Shown here piece by piece: positions 3,281 through 64,000 of a DNA stretch of 64,000 bases. The notes under the pieces were generated by a model. That model did not search any database. It was given only the letters and a program-made list of their open reading frames with translations, and was not told the origin of the DNA. Both the position numbers and the translations under genes were made by a program. The stretch lies in NCBI RefSeq assembly GCF_002854065.1, contig NZ_CP024147.1; one strand, given 5' to 3'. Source of the stretch: Escherichia coli (GTDB taxonomy: Bacteria > Pseudomonadota > Gammaproteobacteria > Enterobacterales > Enterobacteriaceae). Each line of letters starts with the position of its first letter. Position 1 is the stretch's first letter.

Positions 3281-4138
3281 ATGAAAGCACCAGGCTTGCC
3301 CGCCGATCAACAATTTTTCGCCGATCTGTTCAGCGGCCTGGTGCTTAACCCGCAACTACTGGGGCGCGTCTGGTTTGCCAGCCAGCCTGCCTCGTTGCCG
3401 GTGGGCAGTTTATGTATTGATTTTCCCCGTCTGGATATCGTGCTGCGCGGCGAATACGGCAATCTGCTGGAAGCAAAGCAGCAACGTTTGGTGGAAGGAG
3501 AAATGCTGTTTATTCCGGCGCGCGCGGCTAATTTACCGGTCAACAACAAACCGGTGATGCTGTTAAGCCTGGTGTTCGCTCCGACCTGGCTTGGGTTATC
3601 GTTTTACGATAGCCGCACCACGTCGTTGTTGCATCCTGCTCGCCAGATCCAGCTTCCCAGCCTGCAACGCGGTGAAGGTGAAGCGATGCTTACCGCCCTC
3701 ACCCATCTTAGCCGTTCGCCGCTGGAGCAAAATATCATTCAGCCGCTGGTGTTAAGTTTGCTGCATCTTTGCCGTAACGTGGTGAATATGCCGCCGGGCA
3801 ATTCGCAGCCGCGCGGCGATTTTCTCTATCACAGCATTTGTAACTGGGTTCAGGATAATTATGCCCAGCCGCTCACCCGCGAGAGCGTGGCGCAGTTTTT
3901 TAATATCACGCCCAATCATCTGTCAAAACTGTTTGCTCAGCATGGAACGATGCGTTTTATCGAGTATGTGCGTTGGGTGCGAATGGCGAAGGCGAGGATG
4001 ATTTTGCAGAAATATCATCTGTCAATTCATGAAGTGGCACAGAGTTGCGGTTTTCCGGATAGCGACTATTTTTGTCGCGTTTTCCGGCGTCAGTTTGGTC
4101 TGACGCCGGGAGAGTACAGCGCCCGTTTTCAGGGCTAA
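3281..4138 (+). CDS. ypdC: AraC-family transcriptional regulator YpdC
   Basis: 285 aa with C-terminal AraC HTH signature (HLSKLF...FPDSDYFCRVFRRQFGLTPGEY). Confidence 0.85.
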   Translation: MKAPGLPADQQFFADLFSGLVLNPQLLGRVWFASQPASLPVGSLCIDFPRLDIVLRGEYGNLLEAKQQRLVEGEMLFIPARAANLPVNNKPVMLLSLVFAPTWLGLSFYDSRTTSLLHPARQIQLPSLQRGEGEAMLTALTHLSRSPLEQNIIQPLVLSLLHLCRNVVNMPPGNSQPRGDFLYHSICNWVQDNYAQPLTRESVAQFFNITPNHLSKLFAQHGTMRFIEYVRWVRMAKARMILQKYHLSIHEVAQSCGFPDSDYFCRVFRRQFGLTPGEYSARFQG

Positions 4139-4140
4139 CG

Positions 4141-6636
4141 TCAGAAGGTTAATTCTGTTTCCAGCAGCGTCAGGATACTTTGTGCATCTTGCGCGGCAAA
4201 CAATGACTGGCGGAAGTTTTTATTCACCAGTTTACGCGCCAGCTGCGAGAAGACTTTCACATGATTCATCCCTTCGTTAGCACCCAGCGTCAGCATGATC
4301 ACCAGTTCGACTTCGCCCATTTCTGACTGCCAGTCAACCGGTTTCGCCAGCCGGGCAATGCTGATACTGGAATGACGGATCCACTGAGATTTGGTGTGCG
4401 GGATCGCCACGCCAAAACCAACGCCAGTGGTGACAATCTCTTCCCGCTGCCAGACATCCTCTTCCAGCTCGAACGGATGTTCAGTGCGCCCGTTAACGCC
4501 GAGGTTACCGCACAGGAACTGGATCGCCTGCTCTTTATTGCTAAAGGCCTGATCAACGAAGATATTCTCCAGCGCCAGCAGCGGGCGAACGTCTTCTTCC
4601 GGCGTAAAGGCGGTGAGTAACGCTTCAATTTCCTGCGCGCTGCGGCATTCACACGCCTGACGTGCCAGTTCCCGACACGCCTCGCTATCCAATTGACGAA
4701 GCTGGCTTTTCACCGCCGGAATGCGCGGGCTACTCATACTCAGCTCATCCAGGCCCAGCCCAAGCAGTAGCGGCAGATAACGGCTTTCACCGCCCAGTTC
4801 ACCGCAAATGCCTACCCATTTGCCCCGCTGATGCGCAGTGGTAACTATTTGCTGCAACATGCGCAGGAACGATGGCGTAATCGGGTTATATAGCGGCGAT
4901 ACGCGCGGGTTATTACGATCGACCGCATACAGATACTGGGTCATATCGTTGGAGCCGATACTGAAGAAATCGACCTCATCGCAGAAGTGATCGATGATGT
5001 AGCACACCGACGGCACTTCCACCATGATACCCAGCGTAATCGTCTCTGCATGACGCAGGCCATCGCGCTTAAGCTCAACGATCGCTTTTTGGATCTCGCC
5101 CTTCACCCATAAGATCTGATCGAGGCTGTGGACCATCGGGATCATCAACTGGGCGTTGCCGAAACTGGCGGCGCGCAAAATGGCCCGCAGTTGAGTGCGG
5201 AACAGGCCAGCAAATTCCGGGTAAATACGTACCGCGCGATAGCCGAGGAACGGGTTCTCTTCCTGGGGAATATTCAGATAAGGAATGCTTTTATCGCCTC
5301 CGATGTCCATTGTGCGGAAGATAATCGGCTTGTCGCCCGCTGCCAGTAGCACCTGCTGGTAGGCTTCAAATTGCTCCTGCTCGTCCGGCGCGCTGTCGCG
5401 ATCCATATAGAGCATTTCGGTACGGAACAGCCCGACGCCTTCCGCGCCGTTGGCAAACGCGCCAGGCGCTTCCAGAGCGGTGCCAATATTCGCCGCGATA
5501 TCAATACGCTTGTTATCACGGGAATAAGCCAGCTGCGCGGCAGCCTGCGCCTGTTGTTTTTGGCGTTTATCCGCCAGCGTCTGCGCGACCTGATAATAAC
5601 CGCTCACCGCGTCATTCGGGTTAATCGCCAGCACGCCGCACTGGGCGTCAAGCACTGCAGGTTGCCCGGCATAACGGGCAATCGCATCCAGCGGCAGGCC
5701 GCTCAGTACCGGGATCGCCGAGGCGCGGGCCAGAATCAGGGTATGCGAGGTGCGCCCGGTTTTCTCCAGAATCATACCCGCAAGATTTTTTAAATCCAGG
5801 CTTAAAAACTGGCTTGGGGTTAAATCCTCGGCCACCAGAATAGTCGGTTTTTCCAGCACCAGATTGTTGCGCGGCTTCAGTTCCGGCCAGGTAATATGCA
5901 GCAACTGTTCGCTAATATCGCGAATGTCGCTAACACGTTCGCGCAGATAATCGCTGGCAGAAGCAGAAAGTTTGGCGCAAACCTGCTCCATATTGCTGAT
6001 GATCGCCGCCCCCAGCCCCTGATGCTGTTCTGTCATCAGGCGACGGATATTGCCTGCAAATTCATCATCCTGAATCAGCGACAAATGGGCGCTGAGGATA
6101 GTTTTGCTTTCGCCGTCACGCTCACGCAATTGCTGGTTCAGTTGCTCGGCAAGCGTTGCCAGGCTGTGCTCCAGCCGGGTGGAATCTTGCGCACTGGCGG
6201 GGATTGCCCGATAACTGTCGAGGCTGTCGCTTTGTAACAGGGTCAGCGTACCCACGCCGACGCCGCTTGCCAGCACATTGCCGTACAGTAAATCCGGGTT
6301 AAGGCGGCTTAATGAACGCGGCAGCGGATGCGCCGTCAGTTCTGCCTGCGTAGGCTGAACGCTGTCGCTGTCGATAAAGCGCACCTGGATGTACTCTTCC
6401 AGCACGCGCCGCGCCTGCTCTTCATCGCTGCCGCTAATGTTCAGGCTGCAACTGTCATTAAATAGGGTGCCGGTGCCAATCAGCGCCAGCGAGCTTTTGG
6501 CATCGGCCTTTGCGTTCTGGCGATGGTTAATAAAAGTGATTTCGCTTTGCCACTGGCTGCACTGTTCTTTAAGTTCCCACGCCGGACGAGCATGTAGACC
6601 GTTAGGCAAAGGACAGAGAAATTGAATCGTTAACAT
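4141..6636 (-). CDS. fryA: PTS multiphosphoryl transfer protein FryA (HPr - enzyme I - IIA fusion)
   Basis: 831-aa ORF with N-terminal HPr-like domain (GLHARPA), enzyme I PEP-utilising core and C-terminal fructose-type IIA domain. Confidence 0.9.
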   Translation of the reverse strand: MLTIQFLCPLPNGLHARPAWELKEQCSQWQSEITFINHRQNAKADAKSSLALIGTGTLFNDSCSLNISGSDEEQARRVLEEYIQVRFIDSDSVQPTQAELTAHPLPRSLSRLNPDLLYGNVLASGVGVGTLTLLQSDSLDSYRAIPASAQDSTRLEHSLATLAEQLNQQLRERDGESKTILSAHLSLIQDDEFAGNIRRLMTEQHQGLGAAIISNMEQVCAKLSASASDYLRERVSDIRDISEQLLHITWPELKPRNNLVLEKPTILVAEDLTPSQFLSLDLKNLAGMILEKTGRTSHTLILARASAIPVLSGLPLDAIARYAGQPAVLDAQCGVLAINPNDAVSGYYQVAQTLADKRQKQQAQAAAQLAYSRDNKRIDIAANIGTALEAPGAFANGAEGVGLFRTEMLYMDRDSAPDEQEQFEAYQQVLLAAGDKPIIFRTMDIGGDKSIPYLNIPQEENPFLGYRAVRIYPEFAGLFRTQLRAILRAASFGNAQLMIPMVHSLDQILWVKGEIQKAIVELKRDGLRHAETITLGIMVEVPSVCYIIDHFCDEVDFFSIGSNDMTQYLYAVDRNNPRVSPLYNPITPSFLRMLQQIVTTAHQRGKWVGICGELGGESRYLPLLLGLGLDELSMSSPRIPAVKSQLRQLDSEACRELARQACECRSAQEIEALLTAFTPEEDVRPLLALENIFVDQAFSNKEQAIQFLCGNLGVNGRTEHPFELEEDVWQREEIVTTGVGFGVAIPHTKSQWIRHSSISIARLAKPVDWQSEMGEVELVIMLTLGANEGMNHVKVFSQLARKLVNKNFRQSLFAAQDAQSILTLLETELTF

Positions 6637-54437: not shown

Positions 54438-55799
54438 TCAGAAGAACAGTGACGGATCGCCCGCCCGTTTGATCAAGCGACCGTTTGCCATAATGCCCAT
54501 GCTTTCCAGCCAGCGTTCAAACTCCGGTGACGGGCGCAGGTTGAGTAACTGACGCACAGTGGCAGTGTCGTGGAAGGCGGTGGTCTGGTAGTTGAGCATG
54601 ATGTCATCGCCCAACGGCATCCCCATGATGTAATTGCAGCCTGCGGTGGCGAGCAGGATCATCAGGTTTTCGTTGAGGTTCTGGTCAGCGTCAGCGTGGT
54701 TGGTGTAACAGCAGTCACAGCCCATAGAGATGCCGCTCAGCTTGCCCATAAAGTGATCTTCTAAGCCCGCACGGATAATCTGGCGGTCGTTGTAGAGATA
54801 CTCCGGCCCAATAAAGCCGACCACGGTGTTGACGATAAACGGATCGTAATGACGCGCCAGCCCATAGTTACGTGCTTCCATCGTCACCTGGTCTGCGCCG
54901 AAGTTAGCGCCAGCGGATAGCGCTGAACCTTGTCCGGTTTCGAAGTAGAGGCAGTTTTCCCCGGCGATACGGTTGAACTCTGCACCCACTGCGCGCGCTT
55001 CGTCGAGCATCGCCAGTTCCACGCCAAACTCTTTCAGCCCTTTTTCACTGCCACAGATACTCTGGAAAATCAGCCCGCCTGGTGCGCCACGACGAATCGC
55101 TTCGATCTGGGTGGTGACGTGCGCCAGTACGCAGCCCTGAGTTGGGATGTTGAATTTGTCGATCACGCCATAGATGGTGTCCAGCACGCGGCTTAAGTTT
55201 TCCACGTCGTCAGTCACCGGGTTAACGCCGATCACCGCATCGCCCACCCCGAAGGAAAGCCCTTCGTAGATTTGCGCGGCGATACTTTGCACGTCGTCAC
55301 GGGTGTCATTTGGCTGCAAACGGGCGCTGAAGGTGCCCGGAATACCGATGGTGGTATTGGCCTTTTTGATTACCGGCATTTTCTTCGCGCCGTAGATCAG
55401 GTCCGCGTTGGAGCAAATCTTCGCTATCGCCGCGACCACTTCCGAGGTCAGCCCTTTGCGGGTAAAGGTAATGTCGTCCACGCTGGTTTCATCGCTCAGC
55501 ACATACTCACGCAGTTCGCTGATGCTCCAGTTTTTAATCTGGTTGTAGGCCGTTTCGTTAACATCGTCCTGAATCAGCCGCGTCACGCAGTCATCTTCAT
55601 AGGCAATCACCGGATTATTGCGGATGTCCGCTACGGTCATTTCCGACAACACCTGCTTTGCCGCCACGCGCTCCTGTGAACTTGCCGCTGCAACGCCTGC
55701 CAGCACATCCCCCGAACGCAGTTCGTTGGCTTTAGCCAGCACCTCTTTTACATCCTTAAACTGATATACATTGCCGAACAATGTGGTCTTTAGTTTCAT
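54438..55799 (-). CDS. eutB: Ethanolamine ammonia-lyase large subunit EutB
   Basis: 453 aa, MKLKTTLFGNVYQFKDVKEVLAKANELRSGD. Confidence 0.95.
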   Translation of the reverse strand: MKLKTTLFGNVYQFKDVKEVLAKANELRSGDVLAGVAAASSQERVAAKQVLSEMTVADIRNNPVIAYEDDCVTRLIQDDVNETAYNQIKNWSISELREYVLSDETSVDDITFTRKGLTSEVVAAIAKICSNADLIYGAKKMPVIKKANTTIGIPGTFSARLQPNDTRDDVQSIAAQIYEGLSFGVGDAVIGVNPVTDDVENLSRVLDTIYGVIDKFNIPTQGCVLAHVTTQIEAIRRGAPGGLIFQSICGSEKGLKEFGVELAMLDEARAVGAEFNRIAGENCLYFETGQGSALSAGANFGADQVTMEARNYGLARHYDPFIVNTVVGFIGPEYLYNDRQIIRAGLEDHFMGKLSGISMGCDCCYTNHADADQNLNENLMILLATAGCNYIMGMPLGDDIMLNYQTTAFHDTATVRQLLNLRPSPEFERWLESMGIMANGRLIKRAGDPSLFF

Positions 55800-55986
55800 A
55801 AGTCGTTCCCTCAGGAAGAAGTGATGAGTAACATTTCTTCCAGCATTCGAACAATTCTATTTCATCGTTAGCCCTTGTCCTGTAAGGTAATTGTCTTAAC
55901 ACGCCCGTTATTCATCATGCCGAACGCAACCGAACGCGCCGGATACATGATCGGGTTTATCCAGTCGTTATGTCGAGGTATCCGGT

Positions 55987-57192
55987 TTGAGCAAGACACC
56001 ACTCACAGCAAAGGCCATCGCAGCCGCGCAGCCAAAAGACAAGCCCTATAAACTCACCGATTCACTGACGCCAGGACTGTTTTTGCTGGTGCATCCCAAC
56101 GGCAGCAAATACTGGCGATTCAGGTATTGGTTGAATAAACGAGAGTTTTTGCAGGCCATTGGTGTTTACCCGCTAATCACACTCAAAGAAGCACGCAGAC
56201 GCGCCACAGAGAGCCGATCTCTGATTGCTAATGGAATTAATCCAGTGGAAGAAGCACGCAAGGAAAAAGCCATTGATGCGCTCAACATGGCGGCAGGTTT
56301 TAAGACGGTAGCGGAGGACTGGCTGGCTACCAGGGTCAGCGGGTGGTCAGAGTCCTACACGAAACAGGTTAGATCGGCACTGGAAAAAGATGTTTACCCC
56401 GTGCTGGGGAAGCGGTCAATTGTCGATATAACGGCCCGTGACGTGCTGGAATTGCTTCAGAAGAAAGAGCGTACCGCACCGGAACAAGCCAGGAAGCTAC
56501 GCCAGCGTATCGGGGAGATCTTCAAATTTGCCGTTATCACCGAACTGGTGGCAAGAAATCCGGTTGCAGATCTGAACACAGCACTAAAAGCCCGCCGTCC
56601 GGGCCACAACGCATGGCTGCAAATTAACGAAATTCAGGCGTTCTATGAAGCACTTGAGAGAGCCGGGAGCGTCCAGATTCAGACGGCAATACGTTTGCTC
56701 ATATTGAGCGCTCTAAGGACGGTGGAACTGCGTAAAATGCGCTGGGAATGGGTTAACCTGGAAGACGCGATCATCACCCTACCCGCTGAAGTCATGAAGG
56801 CCCGTCGCCCGCATGTGGTCCCGCTATCACGGCAGGCGGTAGAGCTATTGCAGGACCAGTTTACTCGCACCGGATACAGCGCTTTCGTCTTCCCTGGTCG
56901 ATTCATGGATAAGCCCTTGTCTGCCAGCGCGATACTGAAAGCCCTGGAGCGTATCGGATACAAGTCGATAGCCACAGCACACGGCTGGCGTACAACGTTC
57001 AGCACGACGCTTAACGAGTCCGGCAGGTACTCACCAGACTGGATTGAAATCCAATTGGCCCACGTCCCGAAGGGTGTACGCGGTGTATATAACCAGGCGG
57101 CCTATCTCAAACAGCGCCGTCAAATGCTTCAGGACTACGCCGACGCCATTGATTCAATACTGGCTGGTGAAGGTAATCCGCTGGAACCGTGA
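55987..57192 (+). CDS. intZ: P4-type tyrosine integrase (IntZ-like, CPZ-55-type prophage)
   Basis: 401 aa, apparent TTG start; catalytic R (LRTVELRKMRWEWV), HxxR (HGWRTTFST) and Tyr (GVYNQAAY) regions. Confidence 0.85.
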   Translation: MSKTPLTAKAIAAAQPKDKPYKLTDSLTPGLFLLVHPNGSKYWRFRYWLNKREFLQAIGVYPLITLKEARRRATESRSLIANGINPVEEARKEKAIDALNMAAGFKTVAEDWLATRVSGWSESYTKQVRSALEKDVYPVLGKRSIVDITARDVLELLQKKERTAPEQARKLRQRIGEIFKFAVITELVARNPVADLNTALKARRPGHNAWLQINEIQAFYEALERAGSVQIQTAIRLLILSALRTVELRKMRWEWVNLEDAIITLPAEVMKARRPHVVPLSRQAVELLQDQFTRTGYSAFVFPGRFMDKPLSASAILKALERIGYKSIATAHGWRTTFSTTLNESGRYSPDWIEIQLAHVPKGVRGVYNQAAYLKQRRQMLQDYADAIDSILAGEGNPLEP

Positions 57193-57198
57193 ACTATA

Positions 57199-57224
57199 AG
57201 GCCGGATTCGTCCGGCTTTTCTTT
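57199..57224 (+). terminator. Terminator after integrase
   Basis: GGCCGGA-TTCG-TCCGGC hairpin followed by TTTTCTTT. Confidence 0.7.
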
Positions 57225-57231
57225 CGCTAAT

Positions 57232-57259
57232 TATTCCACTATTCCAATTAAGTGGAATA
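57232..57259. promoter_or_regulatory. Inverted repeat (candidate operator) between int and the 255-aa gene
   Basis: TATTCCACT-ATTCCAATTA-AGTGGAATA, perfect 9-bp arms. Confidence 0.4.
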
Positions 57260-57418
57260 AATTATTCAATATCAAAAACTTACATCAATATTGCAACAAT
57301 AAAAACGGTGGCTTATGATCAGATCATGATTTTCGGTATGTGAACAGCAAAAACAAGAAGCCCGGAAAGGCGGCAACCAATCCGGGCGATATGGGAAAAG
57401 AGATTAGGAGGTTTCCCC

Positions 57419-58186
57419 ATGCGTAATAGTTTAGCAGTTCGCTTTAGCTTGCAGCAAGGCGAAGAATTATCACAGGAATATCAATTCATCAAATACGAAG
57501 AAGCGCCGGAACAGGTGCAAATAGCTTTTGATGATCAGCACTACGGCAACACTATCCGCTACGACGGTAAAAAATGGTTTCTCAATCCGGTAACAAATGC
57601 CATTCACGTATGTCAAATCATTACGCCAGTAAATAACAGCGCGGATAACGATTCGGCTATTGACGCTGAACTGGTGACAGAACCACTACCGCCACCGCCG
57701 CCAGTACAAGAAAGCGATGTAAAACCCGACGCCATCGATCTGACAGCAGAAGCCAGAGAGCGCAAACAACCGAAGCCGGAACAACCGCAAGCCAAGGATA
57801 ACAAACAGTGGCACGGTAACACGGCGTATCTGAATACGTTTGCTTGTCATCTTCATGAAGTGCTACCACAGGCCATCTATAGCACATGGTGCGACAAACA
57901 AACGGCGGCACACTTCCACCTGCTTTACGCGCTTTGCTACCTGGCAAGCTACGAAAACAAAGATGAAGGTATCGAGCTTGGCGAGGTGTTATATGGTGCT
58001 GAAAAGATCACAAAGGGCGGCGTAGTACCTGGTTTCCATATGGCCCGATCAACGTTCGATATCAAGATTAACGAGCTTGAACAGTGGGGATTAATCAAGG
58101 TAACACGAGGTAAGAAACGTAAGGACGGGCAAGGCAACTTGCCGAACAGTATCAAACTGAACTTTAAGCCGTACAGTTTAAAATAA
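57419..58186 (+). CDS. Prophage hypothetical protein with Pro-rich linker and possible C-terminal winged-helix DNA-binding domain
   Basis: 255 aa; AGGAGG SD 8 nt upstream; N-terminal domain, LPPPPPVQ...PKPEQPQ linker, C-terminal STFDIKINELEQWGLIKVTRGKKRK. Confidence 0.6.
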   Translation: MRNSLAVRFSLQQGEELSQEYQFIKYEEAPEQVQIAFDDQHYGNTIRYDGKKWFLNPVTNAIHVCQIITPVNNSADNDSAIDAELVTEPLPPPPPVQESDVKPDAIDLTAEARERKQPKPEQPQAKDNKQWHGNTAYLNTFACHLHEVLPQAIYSTWCDKQTAAHFHLLYALCYLASYENKDEGIELGEVLYGAEKITKGGVVPGFHMARSTFDIKINELEQWGLIKVTRGKKRKDGQGNLPNSIKLNFKPYSLK

Positions 58187-58194
58187 TCACACTA

Positions 58195-58220
58195 GGCGGG
58201 CAATGTTCCCGCCTTTTCTT
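58195..58220 (+). terminator. Terminator after the 255-aa gene
   Basis: GGCGGG-CAATGTT-CCCGCC followed by TTTTCTTT. Confidence 0.7.
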
Positions 58221-58243
58221 TGCCTCAATCCTATAAAATTCAC

Positions 58244-58282
58244 ATCCCGAAAATCGGTATCTGGGTATCCCGAAAATCGGTA
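58244..58282. repeat. Two tandem 16-bp direct repeats, each internally palindromic
   Basis: ATCCCGAAAATCGGTA at 58244-58259 and 58267-58282 (core CCGA-AAA-TCGG), 23-bp spacing. Confidence 0.7.
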
Positions 58283-58289
58283 AGTAATA

Positions 58290-59400
58290 ATAAGTATTAT
58301 CCTTAAAGGTAAAAACCATATAAGTAAGATCTATCTCTTCAAGAATGTATATATTCACTACGTTCATATATACATGAGAAGTTTCCCTTTCATGCAGTCA
58401 AAACTACATTCATCAGCATCGCTTTCTGCGCTCTCCTTCCCAGCAAGCTGGAAAGGCCCATTCACTCACGCACAACCTGCAAACCAGACCAACATACCAT
58501 CATGGCGATTCGTTCATGGGTAGCGCGGGTATATCTCAAAGGGTGATTTCTTCTTGGTGGACCTTCGGAAGACTTCGAGCAATCGCCAGCTCAAAAGACG
58601 GTCTGGCAGTGATGGTTATCATCGACAGCATTGAGCGCTACCGCGCCAACTTACAGCAGCAGGATAACTACCGAAGGAAAACCCACGCCGAAAGGGATTG
58701 ACTCACTGCAAAGCCAATGGGTTTTATCAGCGTATACAGACCAGACAGGAAACAGCAGCAAAGCAGCGTATAGCCAGGTGCAGACAGTACCATCACACAA
58801 CGCACAGCAGGCTGAGGTGAACACTCAAACAGGTTTATCCCCGCAGCCGACCAACGCAAACCATCCTGACCGTGCCAAATTCGAACGGAATGGTGCCTGT
58901 AACGCGATGAACACATATAACCGCTTACTTGCTTACCTGAAAACTTCACGTCGCCACAGAGCGATTTAGACGCATTATAATTGATGCGATTTCATTAAAT
59001 TTTCACCAGACACCGGAACAACGCCGATTAATCCAGGAATGGATTCATCGACATGCGCCGCTTTCCCCGCAGAACAGTCTCGCCTGAATAGTCTCACCAA
59101 CCAGATTTCAGATTGTCCAATCAGGCACGTCTCATTAAACGACAGAATGCGGCCTACAACGCCATCGCTGCCGATCTCGTTTGAGCAAGGTGCTGAGACT
59201 GAATGACGGACGCCCACTCCTCAGAGCTGAGGAATCGCCACACAGAACGCTGAGATCTGATATTACCGCCGCACCATTCCACGCCAGACGAATCAATCTA
59301 ATCACACCTGAGCAAATGCATTGCCAAAAATTAAGGCCGTCAGAATGCGTTATATTGCGTTTAAACGGCATCTAATTTTAATTAGTTTTGATGTGGTGAT
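58290..59400. other. ORF-poor prophage segment with only short overlapping ORFs; possible gene remnants or noncoding RNA
   Basis: No ORF over 112 aa on either strand across about 1.1 kb; the largest is S/T/Q-rich and of low complexity; contains an AT-rich 10-bp inverted repeat ATGTATATAT/ATATATACAT (58345-58375). Confidence 0.4.
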
Positions 59401-59668
59401 TGCAGGCAAAAAAAATCCCGCCGGAGAGAGCGGGGAAGTGAAATCAATCGTTGTAGTTATAGATCACATTTTGAGTAAGGGTTACCAGCCCTTGAGTAAT
59501 ATTATCCCTGTATTACGTGAGATGCGCAATTATTTTTTGCTAATTAAAAGTTTTGTAAACATTACAGAATATCCCCTTTCCCTATATGGTAAAAGATGTG
59601 AAACAGGGACATGAGGAATATAATATTAAGTATCAACAGTAATGTTGGTCTTTAATTTCATTCAGGGC

Positions 59669-59710
59669 GCGGTGAGGGTTTTCCCATATTTTTCCTCACC
59701 GCTACTTTTT
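59669..59710 (+). promoter_or_regulatory. Hairpin plus T-run directly upstream of the alpA-like gene ribosome-binding site
   Basis: GCGGTGAGG-16 nt loop-CCTCACCGC followed by TACTTTTT and then GAGGTGAGAACATG. Confidence 0.45.
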
Positions 59711-59721
59711 GAGGTGAGAAC

Positions 59722-59913
59722 ATGAATGATAGCGAATTAATGACGGTGAGCGAGGTAGCCGCTTTATTCGGCGTTACCCGACGCACTATATTCCGCTGGC
59801 TGAACAAGATTAAAGGTTGGCCCGTTCCGGTTACTCCGGTCGGTGCACGAATTAAGTTTATCCGATCTGAGATTTTGGAATTCTATAAAAACAAAGGCGC
59901 TCGCCACCAATGA
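59722..59913 (+). CDS. AlpA/Xis-family small HTH DNA-binding protein (prophage regulator or excisionase-like)
   Basis: 63 aa, LMTVSEVAALFGVTRRTIFRWL HTH; SD GAGGTGAG. Confidence 0.7.
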   Translation: MNDSELMTVSEVAALFGVTRRTIFRWLNKIKGWPVPVTPVGARIKFIRSEILEFYKNKGARHQ

Positions 59914-59989
59914 AAACAGCTACTGAGATTATCAAATAACCTATTGATTTAATAAGCTAGCTACCGCAATTTCTGAAGGAATAGGCAGC

Positions 59990-60316
59990 ATGAAAATCAA
60001 AGCAAACACAATTAAAGAAATAACATCAATCAAAGTAAAAGGAGCAGATGCCATGCATTCATTAGACAGTTATTTTCAGCGCACGACAGCCCCTAAATCA
60101 GCCGCCCAGGAACGCCGTGAGGAATTCCAGGAAAAAGTGATGCGTTCTGCTGATTATATTGCGGACAAGTTCGTGGAAACGGTTCGGCCACTTGTTGATG
60201 AAGTAGCTGATAAACTTCAGTCTGAAATGCCGGAAGACATGGAAGGCACTGCAAAGGCGCGACTCCTTTTTGAATTAAGTCGTCGTTTCGGCGTGTCAAT
60301 AAGCACTTTTAAATAA
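59990..60316 (+). CDS. Hypothetical prophage protein
   Basis: 108-aa ORF, AAGGA SD, co-directional tight spacing with neighbours. Confidence 0.5.
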   Translation: MKIKANTIKEITSIKVKGADAMHSLDSYFQRTTAPKSAAQERREEFQEKVMRSADYIADKFVETVRPLVDEVADKLQSEMPEDMEGTAKARLLFELSRRFGVSISTFK

Positions 60317-60333
60317 TCGGAGGAGAAAAGACA

Positions 60334-60876
60334 ATGGACGCATTTGATGTACTGACAAACAAAGGCGATGAACTGGTAGCACAGCGTGATAAAACCGCCA
60401 ACGAAGGGGAACGCGCACTGTTAAATAAGCAGATTAAAGCGATCCGTATGGCCCAGTTTAAATTAATCAGCAATGAAGTTATCGAAATAATTAAACCGCA
60501 GATCCCACAAATCGTTGCTGACGCTATTAAAGCCGCCGGACTGGAGAAACGCATTGCCGGGCTGAAAACGAACGCAGAGAAAATGGAGATGCACAAACAG
60601 AGCGGTGCTCCGACTCCGGATGAGTACTTCTCACCGGATGCTGAGTTTATGGCGCAGGTTGAGGAACGTCTGGGTAGCTGTCTCACCGAGGAACAGCGTC
60701 GCTATTTTGATGGAGTGGATAGTTCGGCAGGTATTGACCTGAACTCGTGTTTCGGTCGTGAAATTGAGCATTTTGATGCCGCCCCGTCTATGCCGGAGCC
60801 AGAACCAGAAATGGCCGCCGATCCTGAAGCTGAGCAACGGAAACGCGTATTCAATGCGATAGGGATTCGGTACTGA
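60334..60876 (+). CDS. Hypothetical prophage protein (acidic C-terminus)
   Basis: 180-aa ORF with strong GGAGG SD 8 nt upstream. Confidence 0.6.
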   Translation: MDAFDVLTNKGDELVAQRDKTANEGERALLNKQIKAIRMAQFKLISNEVIEIIKPQIPQIVADAIKAAGLEKRIAGLKTNAEKMEMHKQSGAPTPDEYFSPDAEFMAQVEERLGSCLTEEQRRYFDGVDSSAGIDLNSCFGREIEHFDAAPSMPEPEPEMAADPEAEQRKRVFNAIGIRY

Positions 60877-60927
60877 TCGGATAAAAGAAAGCCGGGAATT
60901 ACCCCGGCTGACTTAACAATGTGACCA

Positions 60928-61302
60928 ATGAACAAATCGGACAAGACAAACAGGATAAGCAGTCTCGAAACAATGTTCGGGAACTATATTAGCACAAGTC
61001 CGGAGAAAATCATCATGTTGGCACTACGCATCATGCAGGGCATCGCTAAGACCCTCGCAGAACATGTCTTAGACCTGAAACATTCGCCACTGAGCAAACA
61101 GGCCATGAAGCGCCAAACGCTTCGTCTGTGGGCTGAATATTCGCTTGGAACTATCAATAAAATCATCGACATGAAATCGGGGCCGAGCAACCAGAGCGCG
61201 GAGGAAATGGAGTTCATCAGGCGTTTAATTCTCATTCGCAGAGATATTCATAGCCAGTTACACAGCGTGGGAATCGATATTAATGATGGGACGGGCGATT
61301 AA
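60928..61302 (+). CDS. Hypothetical prophage protein
   Basis: 124-aa ORF; weak SD, start uncertain. Confidence 0.45.
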   Translation: MNKSDKTNRISSLETMFGNYISTSPEKIIMLALRIMQGIAKTLAEHVLDLKHSPLSKQAMKRQTLRLWAEYSLGTINKIIDMKSGPSNQSAEEMEFIRRLILIRRDIHSQLHSVGIDINDGTGD

Positions 61303-61340
61303 TTTTCGGACAAGTACAATGCGCGCGCGAGGAGCTGAAC

Positions 61341-61571
61341 ATGAAGCAAGATATTGCAGACAGGCTGGAGATACTCGAAGGCCAGCGGGCAGAAGCGAAA
61401 CAACTACGTAAGCAGGCCAGAAGAGCGCACAGGAACTACGAAGCAGAATCACTGACCGCTTTCATCAACTTCACAAACCGTTGCATCCAGGAGTGTTACA
61501 GGGAGGATGCAGAAAACTGGCTGGATTCATTGCCAGAACAGACTCTGCATGAACTGAACGGCGACCAGTAA
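61341..61571 (+). CDS. Hypothetical prophage protein
   Basis: 76-aa ORF with GAGGAG SD. Confidence 0.5.
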   Translation: MKQDIADRLEILEGQRAEAKQLRKQARRAHRNYEAESLTAFINFTNRCIQECYREDAENWLDSLPEQTLHELNGDQ

Positions 61572-61859
61572 ATAAATCCAGTACGTTTCCCGCAGTGCGC
61601 ATAACGTACATTATGTGAAAAACGATATGGATGTATATCAGTATTGATTTCATTGAGAAAACTGGGTTTTCAGTGGCACAGACAAAGAAGCATAGCTGAT
61701 ACAGCTTTATAAGCCATTGATTCTATTAAGTGATGTTTTTTGTGATTGGTTGAAGCAAACCAAAACACGATGCCACTGAAGCGTTAATAAACTGTTTCAA
61801 TGTGAAATTATTAGAGTAAAGAACAATTTGGAGGGTCCGCAAACGCGGATAACAATATC

Positions 61860-64000
61860 ATGAGTGGAAATCTCGGGACCATATACTACGAGGTCGATGC
61901 CCGCACTGGGAAACTTCTTATCGCGCAACAGCAGGCGGAAGAGGCGTTCGATCGCATTGAACGAGGAGCGCGGAAGGCTGATAGCGGCGTCAAAAAGTTA
62001 AATACGCAGATGACTAAAACATCAGCCGCAGTCAAAACCAACCTTTCCCCGGCAATCCGTAACGCATCATACCAGATCGCAGACCTTGCCACTCAATTGC
62101 AGATGGGCGGTAATGCGCTTCAGGCGTTCGCTGTGCAGGGTGCGCAGTTATTAGCTGGCTTTGGCACGATGGGCGCGGTAGCTGGCGCGGTGCTGGCTAT
62201 CGCTGGCGCTATGGGTGGAAGCCTGGCACAAGGCGCTGATAGTGCAGCCGGATCGGTTGAGTATCTGGACAAGGCGATCACCAAACTGAACGAGGTCATA
62301 GCTGTAAATGAACAGGGCGTGACGGTGATGAGTGATAGTTACGCCAGACTTTCTAAGGTTAACGCTGAAGTAGCGAAACAGATGCGGAACATGGCTGAAA
62401 TTCAGGCAATTGCAGCACTGCGTGACCTGAAAGAACAGGCAAGCCAGGCACAGGGGGAAATGTCGTCATTCTGGCGCAGCTTGCAGGGTGGTAAAGCTGA
62501 CGCAGCAGCAGCAGCACAGGCACTTGATGATCTTGGAATCACAACCAACGACTACAAAGAGGCGATAGCCATACTGAACGCCAATCAGCCGGATACACAG
62601 GCGCAAATGGCAACGCTAGCCAAATCCGTGATGTATGTTGGAGAGCAATATGATCTGACCAACCAGCAAGCATACGAATTTATACGCGCACTAAATAAGG
62701 CCGCGACAACGAAAACGCCGGAAGCCATGCAGGAGCTATCTGGCTTCATGCAGGTTTTGCTTCAGGATACCGAAAACGGTAACGAGGCATTCCGTGAACT
62801 GGCTATCAAATTCGTCGATGCACAAACCAAAGGCGCAATGTTGGAGGACCAACTAAACCGACTGAAAGGCGCTATTAGTGACGCAGCCACAGAAGCCAGA
62901 AACGCAAACTTTACCACTATGCTCAACACCGTCGCCGCACGCCTGGCAACCATTGAGCAAGGTTGGGAGGCAGGCGTTAGGATGCAGATGAAAGCCCAGG
63001 GCTACACTGAAGAGCAGATCGATGAATATGTGAACATGGAAACGGCGTACCGTGATGCAAAAGCCGCTTTGGACGAGAAGAACAAGGCCGACCGTGAAGC
63101 TATTGCGCTATCCAAACGCCAGGCCGCAGAAGCAGCCCGCAAGGCAAAACAGGAAGAAGCTGAAGCACAACGCAAGGCCAAACAGTTAGCCGCGCAGAAG
63201 GAGCAGGCAGGACGCTTTACGCAGCAAGTAATGACGGAATACCTGACGACCGTAGATCCGGCAACAGGCAAGGCGTTTAACCCTGCCGCACAAGTAGAAA
63301 TGCAGGAGCAGCAGAAGAAAGCGGCGCTGGATAAATACAGACAGTTGGGCGTCCTGGATGAACAGCAGTACCAGAACACGCTAACCGCCATCCAGAAAAC
63401 CGCGTCAATGCGCCGCCAGCAAATCATCAAAGACGAGGCCGACACGTTATTCAACAATCAGCAACAGTTGATCGGCACATTTGGCGATTTCTTCGGTGAA
63501 CTGTCTGGAGTCATAGCAGACGGTGCAGGTGAGCAAAACGCGGCATATCAAGCGCTATTTGCTGTGCAGAAGGGTTTTGTATTGGCATCAGCAGCTTTAA
63601 GCCTTCAGAAAGCGCTTGCTGAGGCAAACGCCTTGCCTTTCCCGGCTAATCTTCCGGCCTATGCGCAAGCTATGTCAGCAGGTACGCAGATCATTTCAGC
63701 TATTCGTGGAATAGCTTTCGGTGGCGGACGCTACAACGGCGGCGCGGTTGGTGCTGGCAACCTGTACCGCGTGGGTGAACACGGTAAGCCTGAGATATTC
63801 AAGGCGAACAATGGCAGCCAGTACATGATCCCAGGTGATAACGGTCGCGTGATAAGTAATCGTGACATTGGCGGCGGTGGCGGCGTAACAATCAACAGCC
63901 CGATCACCATTAACACTACGAATGGCTTCAGTGATGAAGACTCAAGGCGTCTTGAGGAAGCGATGAAGCGCGTAGCTATGGGCGTTTGCAGGCAGGAGTC
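61860..64000 (+). CDS. Phage tail tape measure protein, 5' part; ORF runs off window end
   Basis: Open frame from ATG 61860 to the window end (over 700 codons; absent from the ORF track because no stop); hydrophobic Gly/Ala-rich segment, long A/Q/K-rich coiled coils, GNLYRVGEHGKPEIF motif resembling lambda gpH. Confidence 0.65.
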   Translation, partial: MSGNLGTIYYEVDARTGKLLIAQQQAEEAFDRIERGARKADSGVKKLNTQMTKTSAAVKTNLSPAIRNASYQIADLATQLQMGGNALQAFAVQGAQLLAGFGTMGAVAGAVLAIAGAMGGSLAQGADSAAGSVEYLDKAITKLNEVIAVNEQGVTVMSDSYARLSKVNAEVAKQMRNMAEIQAIAALRDLKEQASQAQGEMSSFWRSLQGGKADAAAAAQALDDLGITTNDYKEAIAILNANQPDTQAQMATLAKSVMYVGEQYDLTNQQAYEFIRALNKAATTKTPEAMQELSGFMQVLLQDTENGNEAFRELAIKFVDAQTKGAMLEDQLNRLKGAISDAATEARNANFTTMLNTVAARLATIEQGWEAGVRMQMKAQGYTEEQIDEYVNMETAYRDAKAALDEKNKADREAIALSKRQAAEAARKAKQEEAEAQRKAKQLAAQKEQAGRFTQQVMTEYLTTVDPATGKAFNPAAQVEMQEQQKKAALDKYRQLGVLDEQQYQNTLTAIQKTASMRRQQIIKDEADTLFNNQQQLIGTFGDFFGELSGVIADGAGEQNAAYQALFAVQKGFVLASAALSLQKALAEANALPFPANLPAYAQAMSAGTQIISAIRGIAFGGGRYNGGAVGAGNLYRVGEHGKPEIFKANNGSQYMIPGDNGRVISNRDIGGGGGVTINSPITINTTNGFSDEDSRRLEEAMKRVAMGVCRQE

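Follow-up and report, generated by a model that had tools for sequence, protein, structure and literature searches.

The last 8.2 kb of a 64,000-nucleotide stretch of Escherichia coli DNA (RefSeq assembly GCF_002854065.1, contig NZ_CP024147.1; hereafter the window) belong to an integrated element that lies between the ethanolamine-utilisation genes eutB and eutA, where strain K-12 carries CPZ-55. The element encodes a tail tape measure protein (TMP), and neither the window nor any relative of the element has the surrounding tail cluster (major tail, chaperone and tail-tip genes). We propose that the element lives as a satellite, or as a parasite resembling one, on temperate siphophages of the mEp021 type, and we put the probability of this reading at about 0.58. 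The proposal builds on a gene plan that is conserved across a family of small integrated and circular elements, on strong purifying selection acting on the TMP and integrase genes, on the length constancy of a TMP whose middle diverges, and on TMP ends that resemble those of one particular group of phages.

A solitary tape measure gene in an island at the eutB-eutA junction

The host genes eutR, eutK, eutL, eutC and eutB occupy the minus strand, with eutB ending at 55799. After the 11-nt eutA-eutB spacer comes an 8-bp sequence, TCAGGAAG (55811-55818), which overlaps the eutA stop codon, and foreign DNA begins at 55819. We defined this octamer as the attL core, a target duplication, by comparing the locus with an unoccupied site (L004) and with the right-hand junctions in two related islands (L002 and L003): in relatives it stands at both island ends, the second copy immediately preceding eutA, and the same duplication has been published for CPZ-55 (PMC6379469). 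The window holds the left part of the island (55819-64000), whose total length, judging by its relatives, is ~9-11 kb; attR lies outside the window. The eut genes have a GC content of ~0.56, which falls to 0.39-0.53 within the insert, and every island gene in the window is on the plus strand. The first of these, intZ (55987-57192), encodes a 401-aa P4-type tyrosine integrase that matches phrog_1 (E 9.8e-66) and, under the curated cut-off, the NCBIfam model PRK09692 (E 7.5e-70). A 92%-identical homolog carries the Arm-DNA-bind_3, Phage_int_M and Phage_integrase domains. IntZ is 93% identical to K-12 IntZ over 401 residues, its gene is ~85% identical at the DNA level, and RefSeq uses the name intZ at the identical locus. 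The element is a member of the CPZ-55 family, integrated by IntZ at the TCAGGAAG core.

A sequence-only reading of this DNA had placed a P4-type integrase just past eutB at the CPZ-55 position of K-12, had put the far attachment site beyond the window, and had listed a 255-aa open reading frame (ORF), a helix-turn-helix (HTH) gene, four small ORFs and a TMP gene, with no head, portal, terminase or major tail gene between integrase and TMP. Each of these points is confirmed, and a comparison it proposed, with an empty eutA-eutB junction, helped to locate TCAGGAAG as the duplicated core. It also called the gene order unusual and left a choice between a deletion-shuffled prophage and a non-canonical element. 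The order is in fact the conserved plan of a whole element family, and of the two alternatives the non-canonical element is supported whereas the deletion-shuffled prophage is not. The prospect that downstream sequence would reveal a complete prophage, with this segment as an internal module, fails because the intact relatives examined have eutA within 0.4-3.2 kb past the TMP gene, the whole insert coming to ~9-13 kb. In PE164 and CV839-06 eutA follows the TMP gene directly; in 13TMH22 (L002) up to four small genes intervene, among them yffQ-like and yffS-like ones. Among complete E. coli genomes, 4,965 of 5,426 have an uninterrupted eutA-eutB junction and 482 match the island, a prevalence of ~8-9% that agrees with the published figure of ~8% for the CPZ-55 site (PMC6379469).

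The TMP gene begins at 61860 and runs off the window at 64000, with 713 of its 726 codons inside; in relatives it ends ~40 nt past the equivalent of 64000. The segment is 100% identical to the corresponding part of E. coli CUWW06 up to 63951, the point after which an IS1 element and a deletion reaching maeB cut the CUWW06 TMP gene. The last 49 nt of the window, unlike that truncated copy, continue an intact TMP gene as in 13TMH22. The protein matches phrog_1538 over residues 1-455 (E 9.1e-103) and phrog_1107 over residues 412-725 (E 1.7e-57), as well as Pfam TMP_2 (E 8.6e-4) and the structure 9occ_M, 'tail tape measure protein gp18' (E 3.5e-11). It has the layout of lambda-type N- and C-terminal regions around a divergent central ruler, and 3,762 homologs at E<=1e-3. 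Together these matches make a solid case that the large ORF is a genuine tail tape measure gene. Its best 120 homologs in a collection of 5.8 billion proteins are 89-98% identical and, apart from one of 689 aa, 718-729 aa long; every organism-named one of them comes from Escherichia. In bona fide phages, homologous TMP genes sit inside complete lambda-like tail modules, whereas the island gene stands alone.

A conserved gene plan shared by integrated and circular elements

Protein clustering of the relatives revealed a common plan. An integrase is followed by an HTH_36/YffL-type gene with variable cargo, an HTH_17 or HNH gene, a small helical protein (F2), variable small genes, a YffM-like gene (F1), a small terminase (TerS) or the window's 76-aa gene (F8), a YffP-like or F17 gene, the TMP gene, and right-end cargo. 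The variable cargo of sister islands includes YafO toxin systems, an AIPR protein, HNH genes and IS elements, and TerS and a neck/tail-completion protein are options of the plan, each present in some variants only. The order is kept across variants whose TMPs are just 26-49% identical. Two sister islands (P0121 and P0122), with TMPs 49% and 47% identical to that of the window, occupy the same eutB/eutA site, follow the same plan, and carry, immediately upstream of the TMP gene, a TerS of the Sf6 type and a YffP-like gene. Sister-variant TerS proteins match phrog_1482 (E 4e-11 to 5.5e-13), one sister island adds an 'HK97 gp10'/Neck1-type tail-completion protein (phrog_5, E 4e-8), and winged-helix proteins resembling replication initiator O (E 8e-7) are also encoded by sister variants. 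Neither the window nor ~15 related islands and circles, 8-13 kb in total size, yielded genes for capsid, portal, large terminase, major tail, tail tip or lysis, or pseudogenes of these.

Further E. coli TMP matches that we inspected in context proved to be ten eut-site islands and one island at a second site (L022, from APEC E14033). Four loci first suspected of being helper prophages because of their RefSeq label 'tape measure protein' (H92, H89, H124 and H117) were rejected as such; all are island variants at the eut site. In L022 the family cargo lies behind a 388-aa integrase, ~30% identical to IntZ, inserted in ychJ next to rssA, and comprises the HTH gene, F2, F1, TerS, the Neck1 protein and a 726-aa TMP (86% protein identity).

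The family also occurs without chromosomal flanks. Three contigs from E. coli isolate assemblies, L104 (10,942 nt), L105 (11,256 nt) and L106 (10,266 nt), carry a window-type TMP at 91-93% amino acid identity together with family core genes. Their ends overlap exactly over 77, 127 and 127 nt, respectively, a k-mer signature that indicates circles of ~10.1-11.1 kb, and in L104 one ORF is continuous over the contig junction. None of the three has eut flanks, a tyrosine integrase or TCAGGAAG; two of them encode a 208-aa resolvase. Two finished, non-mobilizable E. coli plasmids of 8,009 bp have the same resolvase/XRE backbone and family core genes but no TMP gene; the replicon of one of them (L107, NZ_CP062859.1), to which PLSDB assigns no replicon type, appears uncharacterised. 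In L105, a gene for a 165-aa peptidyl-prolyl isomerase (Pro_isomerase; 3384-3881) lies just upstream of TerS. On the strength of the ychJ-site island, the overlap-circular contigs and the 8-kb plasmids, the family exists both integrated, with at least two att systems, and as episomes, which shows one cargo module shuttling among a plasmid backbone and two systems of chromosomal integration.

Selection and length constancy of the tape measure protein

Pairwise Nei-Gojobori estimates between island alleles gave ratios of nonsynonymous to synonymous divergence (dN/dS) of 0.06-0.15 for the TMP gene, at dS up to 0.74, and of 0.07-0.13 for the integrase gene, at dS 0.07-0.93 (0.38-0.93 except for the pair L003/L019, 0.07). 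Both genes are thus kept by strong purifying selection. In the host flank, eutB has dN/dS of 0-0.04 at a dS of just 0.01-0.12, which makes the host backbone much younger than the island alleles that sit in it. For the small-gene block (the 108- to 76-aa genes) dS is ~0 and dN/dS could not be estimated because the alleles are nearly identical. Since this block is so uniform among islands whose TMP genes differ at dS 0.4-0.6, the modules must recombine.

All ten TMP alleles compared are intact, and nine of them measure 726-732 aa, the other 787 aa. Their middles are only 10-28% identical, while the two ends (130 residues at the N-terminus, 125 at the C-terminus) recombine independently of each other: the L008 protein is 92% identical to the window type at its N-terminus and 78% at its C-terminus, and L102 combines the window's backbone with a different TMP allele. 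Constant length without constant sequence fits a working length ruler. Outside these alleles, three metagenome contigs (L010, of 8.6 kb, L011 and L012) encode a 789-aa TMP relative, 35-38% identical, beside small unknown genes and genes for DUF5681 and DUF6932 proteins, with no tail-tip genes downstream; they may represent another TMP-bearing small element outside E. coli.

These observations bear directly on the classical view of CPZ-55, whose annotation and discussion in the literature treat it as a 'grounded' or cryptic prophage. On that view, a full siphovirus integrated at eutA/eutB would have been reduced by random deletions to the integrase, a few early genes and the TMP gene, and the single pseudogene remnant in the window, like the erosion of individual copies elsewhere (IS1 truncation in CUWW06, integrase loss in MDK9L1, an ISNCY insertion in NCTC9967), would be further steps of the same decay. 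Random loss, however, does not account for ~15 variants of which none exceeds ~13 kb or retains any of the virion genes listed above, for a plan kept across alleles at dS 0.4-0.9 and at TMP identities down to 26%, or for strong purifying selection on the TMP and the integrase. Nor does it explain why circular elements carry the module too, why it also occurs at a second site behind a different integrase, and why 11 of the 11 E. coli loci of this TMP lineage inspected in context are islands and never full prophages. The decaying-prophage explanation is already largely refuted, and we give it very little credence.

Tape measure ends resemble those of mEp021-group phages

Among 50,697 phage records, the best full-length matches to the island TMP are just 32-36% identical, but its C-terminal 93 residues are 63-72% identical to the TMPs of MagusPhagus and the mEp021 group (mEp013, mEp554, mEp515, mEp021, mEp010 and mEp044). 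Aligned with the 781-aa mEp021 protein, the island TMP shows 51% identity in an 83-residue N-terminal alignment, strongest over the first ~50 residues, and 65% identity with 85% positives over the last 107 residues, with no homology between the two ends. The two proteins therefore share homologous termini and a coiled-coil ruler architecture, but their central ~570 residues are unrelated and the island protein is shorter (726 versus 781 aa). The family TerS points in a similar direction: it matches 54 phage records, mostly from Pseudomonas and Ralstonia phages, of which seven are named Escherichia or Enterobacteria, among them mEp554 (33% identity, E 3e-6), and five list E. coli K-12 as host, as do the mEp phages. 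Of all E. coli phages, those of the mEp021 group thus have the nearest relatives of both TMP ends and of the family TerS. Conserved ends on the TMP together with such a TerS would be the pattern expected of proteins that dock into the assembly machinery of mEp021-type phages.

In mEp021 itself (L108) and in related prophage tail modules (L013-L016), inserted morons, among them Arc-like repressors, P22-type antirepressors and reverse-strand genes, come between the TMP gene and those for the major tail protein and the chaperone. The TMP gene may therefore be transcribed as a unit of its own in these phages.

The resemblance of the ends also bears on the idea that the family consists of small plasmids or integrative elements whose TMP-like protein was domesticated for a non-phage job, for instance as a membrane channel, in DNA entry or in another apparatus. 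Circular and plasmid forms with a resolvase and without mobilisation genes would suit such a history, as would the fact that most core genes are orphans without phage homologs, and the hydrophobic segment near the TMP N-terminus, a feature that is usual for TMPs. Yet both phage-type termini have been kept, at 51-65% identity to a real phage TMP, the TMP co-occurs in the family with TerS and the Neck1 protein, and no genes for any other apparatus lie within the 8-13 kb. We therefore consider domestication highly improbable.

A satellite-like reading of the element

In the satellite reading that we favour, induction of a helper prophage or infection by a helper would lead the HTH_17 protein and IntZ to excise the element. 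The island TMP, with helper-like docking ends and a ruler of its own, would then replace the helper TMP during tail assembly, and the resulting chimeric tails would help the element to be transferred, disrupt the assembly of helper tails, or both. Variants with TerS would also redirect packaging, whereas the window subtype, which has no TerS, would depend on the terminase of the helper or work chiefly through interference. CPZ-55 is known to excise at low frequency in K-12 (PMC3105296).

Interference could also be the whole story: the island may be an integrative or plasmid-borne anti-phage element that is never packaged, its TMP serving as a dominant-negative decoy that co-assembles with the tail parts of incoming mEp021-type phages, gives defective tails and so protects the bacterial population. 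The match of the TMP ends to one specific phage group would suit such a decoy, and so would the TerS-free window subtype in which we found no cos site, the absence of the element from viral contig collections, and the defence- or toxin-type cargo (YafO toxin system, AIPR protein) that lies beside the integrase in sister islands. Inhibition of tail assembly by satellites and prophages has precedents in the Tai systems, by which satellites also block helper tail assembly (PMC11364771), and in the PLE11 Rta. A pure decoy, on the other hand, has no obvious use for the TerS and neck/tail-completion genes of sister islands, which suit packaging and virion completion, and the tight length of a TMP whose ruler sequence varies suggests real tail measuring. 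PADLOC found no defence system in the core genes, its sole match being a mad1-like one to the small HTH protein. Hitch-hiking and interference are in any case not mutually exclusive, since the Vibrio satellites known as PLEs do both. We regard interference alone as unlikely.

Several points weigh against the satellite reading. Helper dependence, induced excision, packaging and the presence of the TMP in virions are steps that we infer, and the link to mEp021 is one of homology. The window subtype has no TerS, although K-12 and sister variants have one, and searches of the element for the cos sequences of lambda, HK97 and P2/P4 returned chance 10-mers alone. No primase or helicase emerged from PHROG, NCBIfam and PADLOC scans of the window, and no tail assembly chaperone was recognised. 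A replication-initiator-like role for the 255-aa and YffL-type proteins is suggested by weak matches (YffL, E ~1e-3), and structure searches with models of the 255-aa and 108-aa proteins were uninformative. IMG/VR viral contigs include no close relative of the island, and the DNA of the small-gene block has no match in the 50,697 phage records. As for episomal forms, the circularity of L104-L106 is deduced from assembly overlaps and not from finished molecules, PLSDB lists the 8,009-bp plasmid L107 as linear, and a study of the K-12 mobilome saw no circular-DNA activity of CPZ-55.

Beyond the single island, we tentatively suggest, at slightly less than even odds, that CPZ-55 and its relatives constitute an unrecognised class of Escherichia satellites, integrated or maintained as ~8-11-kb plasmids, that parasitise mEp021-type siphophages by means of their own TMP and, in some members, TerS and neck proteins. 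If so, they would be the first tail-remodelling satellites of enterobacteria, in a genetically tractable host, and an E. coli counterpart of the chimeric-tail mechanism of Vibrio PLEs that is open to genetic dissection; a K-12 'cryptic prophage' locus would be reclassified as one of a family of active phage-parasitic elements. The analysis supplies a concrete helper hypothesis in the mEp021-group phages. The insertion site of CPZ-55, the 8-bp duplication, its prevalence and its low-level excision are already published. TMP-encoding satellites were first reported in 2025, and our literature search found no paper in which intZ, eutB or CPZ-55 is connected with satellites or with a TMP gene.

Cargo region and small genes

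Between intZ and the small-gene block lies the variable cargo region, which in the window begins with a gene for a 255-aa orphan protein (57419-58186, plus strand). We class it as cargo and not core because it is missing from islands L002 and L003. PHROG, NCBIfam, PADLOC and Pfam searches with the protein gave no match, but its C-terminus resembles K-12 YffL (28% identity, E 8.5e-10), and its C-terminal domain is distantly related to the HTH_36 proteins of sister islands. Its 15 close homologs, where an organism is named, are all from E. coli. In an AlphaFold2 model (pLDDT 62) a disordered linker rich in Pro and Glu joins a beta domain at the N-terminus to a winged-helix-like C-terminal domain, for which Foldseek against the PDB returned generic winged-helix folds alone, none significant (E>=0.3). 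A 255-aa gene in L105 was considered as a homolog and rejected, the match being confined to the adjacent terminator region.

Inverted repeats surround this gene. The left arm (57312-57344) is 71-84% complementary over 25-28 nt to the right arms (58239-58294), which include the 16-mer ATCCCGAAAATCGGTA twice in tandem (58244-58259 and 58267-58282), and a terminator-like hairpin (58194-58214) stands just ahead of the right arms. These repeats may serve as operators or iterons, or they may mark the edges of a cassette.

The sequence-only reading had noted about 1.1 kb without a convincing ORF after the 255-aa gene. The stretch indeed has no convincing ORF, but it is longer (~1.5 kb, 58187-59721) and is not empty, as it contains a pseudogene remnant and a conserved AT-rich block of ~250 bp with a candidate small RNA (described below). 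The remnant (58560-58995, plus strand) derives from a 209-aa gene of which L006 has an intact copy (5485-6114); here the gene is frameshifted and has lost its 5' part, and tblastn finds it at 65-78% identity across three frames, covering residues 65-209 only. The earlier label 'AlpA-like' for the next gene (59722-59913, plus strand) does not apply either: the 63-aa protein is of the HTH_17/excisionase type (Pfam HTH_17, E 3.9e-8; phrog_66 'excisionase and transcriptional regulator', E 1.5e-8; TIGR01764, E 1.1e-5, below cut-off), and Phage_AlpA is not matched even at E<=10. It is probably a switch for excision, transcription or both.

The small-gene block follows. F2 (59990-60316, plus strand; 108 aa) occurs in every TMP-bearing variant examined and is absent from the K-12 copy. 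It has 219 homologs, and among the 120 listed all organism-named ones are from Escherichia; its sole match in PHROG and NCBIfam is a marginal PHROG one (E 0.009), and its AlphaFold2 model, a helical hairpin (pLDDT 80), has no significant Foldseek match in the PDB (E>=0.3). Because neither this model nor that of the 255-aa protein has a significant match, a tail-chaperone or replication-initiator fold is unconfirmed. F7 (60334-60876, plus strand; 180 aa) is an orphan with no PHROG, NCBIfam, PADLOC or Pfam match. It is near-identical among the window, L002, L003, L019 and L021, somewhat more diverged in L102 (96% DNA identity), and short ORFs of L006, L105 and L107 match the first 78 residues of the protein at 41-44% identity. 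F1 (61015-61302, plus strand; 95 aa, or 124 aa from an alternative start at 60928) resembles K-12 YffM (35% identity, E 5.6e-12) and is present in every family member examined, integrated or circular (8 of 8 island variants, L104-L107 and L022). F8 (61341-61571, plus strand; 76 aa) is an orphan in the slot where sister variants hold the small terminase, with a 70%-identical copy in the circular element L104. Neither the 124-aa form of F1 nor the 76-aa protein has a Pfam, PHROG or NCBIfam match.

Upstream of the TMP gene is an AT-rich gap of 288 nt with no ORF in any frame (61572-61859), which is possibly the gene's own promoter region. In NCTC9967 (L021, 3836-6615) the gap between F8 and the TMP gene has received an ISNCY transposase gene and three minus-strand genes, including one for an ECs_2282-family zinc-binding protein; the TMP ORF there is intact. 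Promoter and terminator scans of the region were at chance level overall, and a tRNA/tmRNA search found none in the island region.

A candidate small RNA in a conserved AT-rich block

The AT-rich block at ~59290-59530 is conserved at 76-100% DNA identity in all the TMP-bearing eut-site variants compared, with indels that are not multiples of three, and has no match in K-12 CPZ-55 or in the ychJ-site island. Its minus strand contains a candidate small RNA (sRNA; 59405-59530) that combines two hairpins with a conserved single-stranded segment and ends in a U8 terminator. On that strand the terminator spans 59434-59417, and positions 59559-59532 resemble a -35/-10 promoter site. The candidate is divergent from the HTH_17 gene and antisense to an 89-aa ORF annotated by RefSeq (59345-59614). 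That ORF has no PHROG or NCBIfam match, and because the block is conserved at the DNA level with non-triplet indels it is unlikely to be real and is probably spurious.

Both hairpins are retained at the same positions in every variant although their stem sequences differ, and single-sequence folds agree on the two hairpins, with weak thermodynamic z-scores (-0.1 to -2.6). RNAalifold likewise gave a weak score (-11.6 kcal/mol), because MAFFT misregisters one of the hairpins. An Rfam search of 55700-64000 at E<=1 yielded one sub-threshold GcvB-like match (E 0.55). With this modest thermodynamic support, we regard the minus-strand RNA as a candidate regulatory sRNA.

Possible consequences for the eut operon

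By splitting the eut operon between eutA and eutB, with its own genes transcribed in opposition to the operon, the element bears on ethanolamine utilisation. Three island-bearing strains have further damage in the region. In CUWW06 (L001, 28168-28865) IS1 is accompanied by a deletion of eutA-eutS; in MDK9L1 (L020, 4137-4265 and 9573-10973) intZ and most of eutB are gone and eutA is partial; and in O157:H7 PV15-279 (L103, 1-2499 and 22560-23261) IS1203 interrupts eutB and eutQ has an internal stop. Such extra lesions are consistent with an insertion that had already disabled ethanolamine utilisation. Derivatives of K-12 are expected to carry CPZ-55, yet the genome deposited as 'E. coli DH5alpha' (NZ_CP026085.1, H59) has an uninterrupted eutA-eutB junction; it is possibly mislabelled or cured.

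Comparison with known systems

The closest known relative is CPZ-55 of K-12 (intZ, yffL-yffS), which shares with the island its insertion point, the duplicated octamer, the integrase, a YffL-type C-terminal domain and a YffM-type gene, and whose yffQ/yffS right end reappears in sister islands such as L002. The 6.8-kb K-12 copy differs in lacking the TMP, HTH_17 and F2 genes and in having TerS-like YffO and YffP instead; the common parts are ~85% identical, whereas the DNA of the middles is unrelated. By its phrog_1482 match (E 5.5e-13) YffO is homologous to small terminases, and YffL has weak matches to DnaD-like and replication-initiator families. The window, which ends before the yffQ/yffS region, contains no YffN, YffO or YffP.

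Gram-negative phage-inducible chromosomal islands (PICIs, such as EcCICFT073) and P4-like elements resemble the island in size, in a P4-type integrase at the end, in a small HTH regulator heading a rightward operon, in a hot spot of variable toxin or defence cargo and, in some members, in TerS-mediated redirection of packaging; integrated and plasmid states also occur in both the family and P4. An integrase at one end of an element of ~10-15 kb, as in PICIs, is what we find here. For a PICI-type pri-rep module the sole candidates are the weakly replication-initiator-like winged-helix proteins of the variable regions, and for the packaging function the family offers TerS in sister variants and YffO in K-12, but not in the window, and no lambda or P2 cos. 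Unlike PICIs, the island has no AlpA of the Phage_AlpA family, primase/replicase, Rpp/Ppi or cos site. With P4 the P4-type integrase alone is common, as there is no PHROG or NCBIfam match to psu, delta, sid, alpha, epsilon or cnr. The island in turn carries a TMP gene.

According to the preprint that described the EPIP satellites of Mycolicibacterium, a TMP is otherwise no feature of described satellites except PLEs (bioRxiv 10.64898/2025.12.02.691453), although predicted tmp genes in some other putative satellites have been reported (PMC11838301). EPIPs are 11-kb satellites with TerS, head-tail adaptors and a TMP (bioRxiv 10.64898/2025.12.02.691453). They are like the CPZ-55 family in length (~11 kb), in having an integrase and an HTH protein, and in the virion genes they encode, since the same subset (TerS, head-to-tail adaptor or stopper, TMP) is found across the family. 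They differ in their serine integrase, in carrying capsid and scaffold genes, in having been isolated as particles and in belonging to another host phylum, and there is no sequence relationship.

The PLEs of Vibrio cholerae too are small integrative elements with their own TMP gene and without tail tube, tail tip or capsid genes, and the island likewise has the gene content that defines a TMP satellite, namely its own TMP with the other tail structural genes missing. The PLE TMP is selectively incorporated, giving chimeric, shorter tails, and the satellite thereby escapes its own anti-tail factor (PMC11838301); this replacement has been shown experimentally in PLEs (PMC11838301), whereas here it is proposed. 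The sequences are unrelated, and the PLE helper ICP1 is a myovirus where the presumed helper here is a siphovirus. In the island we recognise neither the replication module nor the tail assembly chaperone of PLEs, nor the baseplate hub that some of them have. On the other hand, the termini of the island TMP are 51-65% identical to those of the putative helper, compared with ~20% in PLEs.

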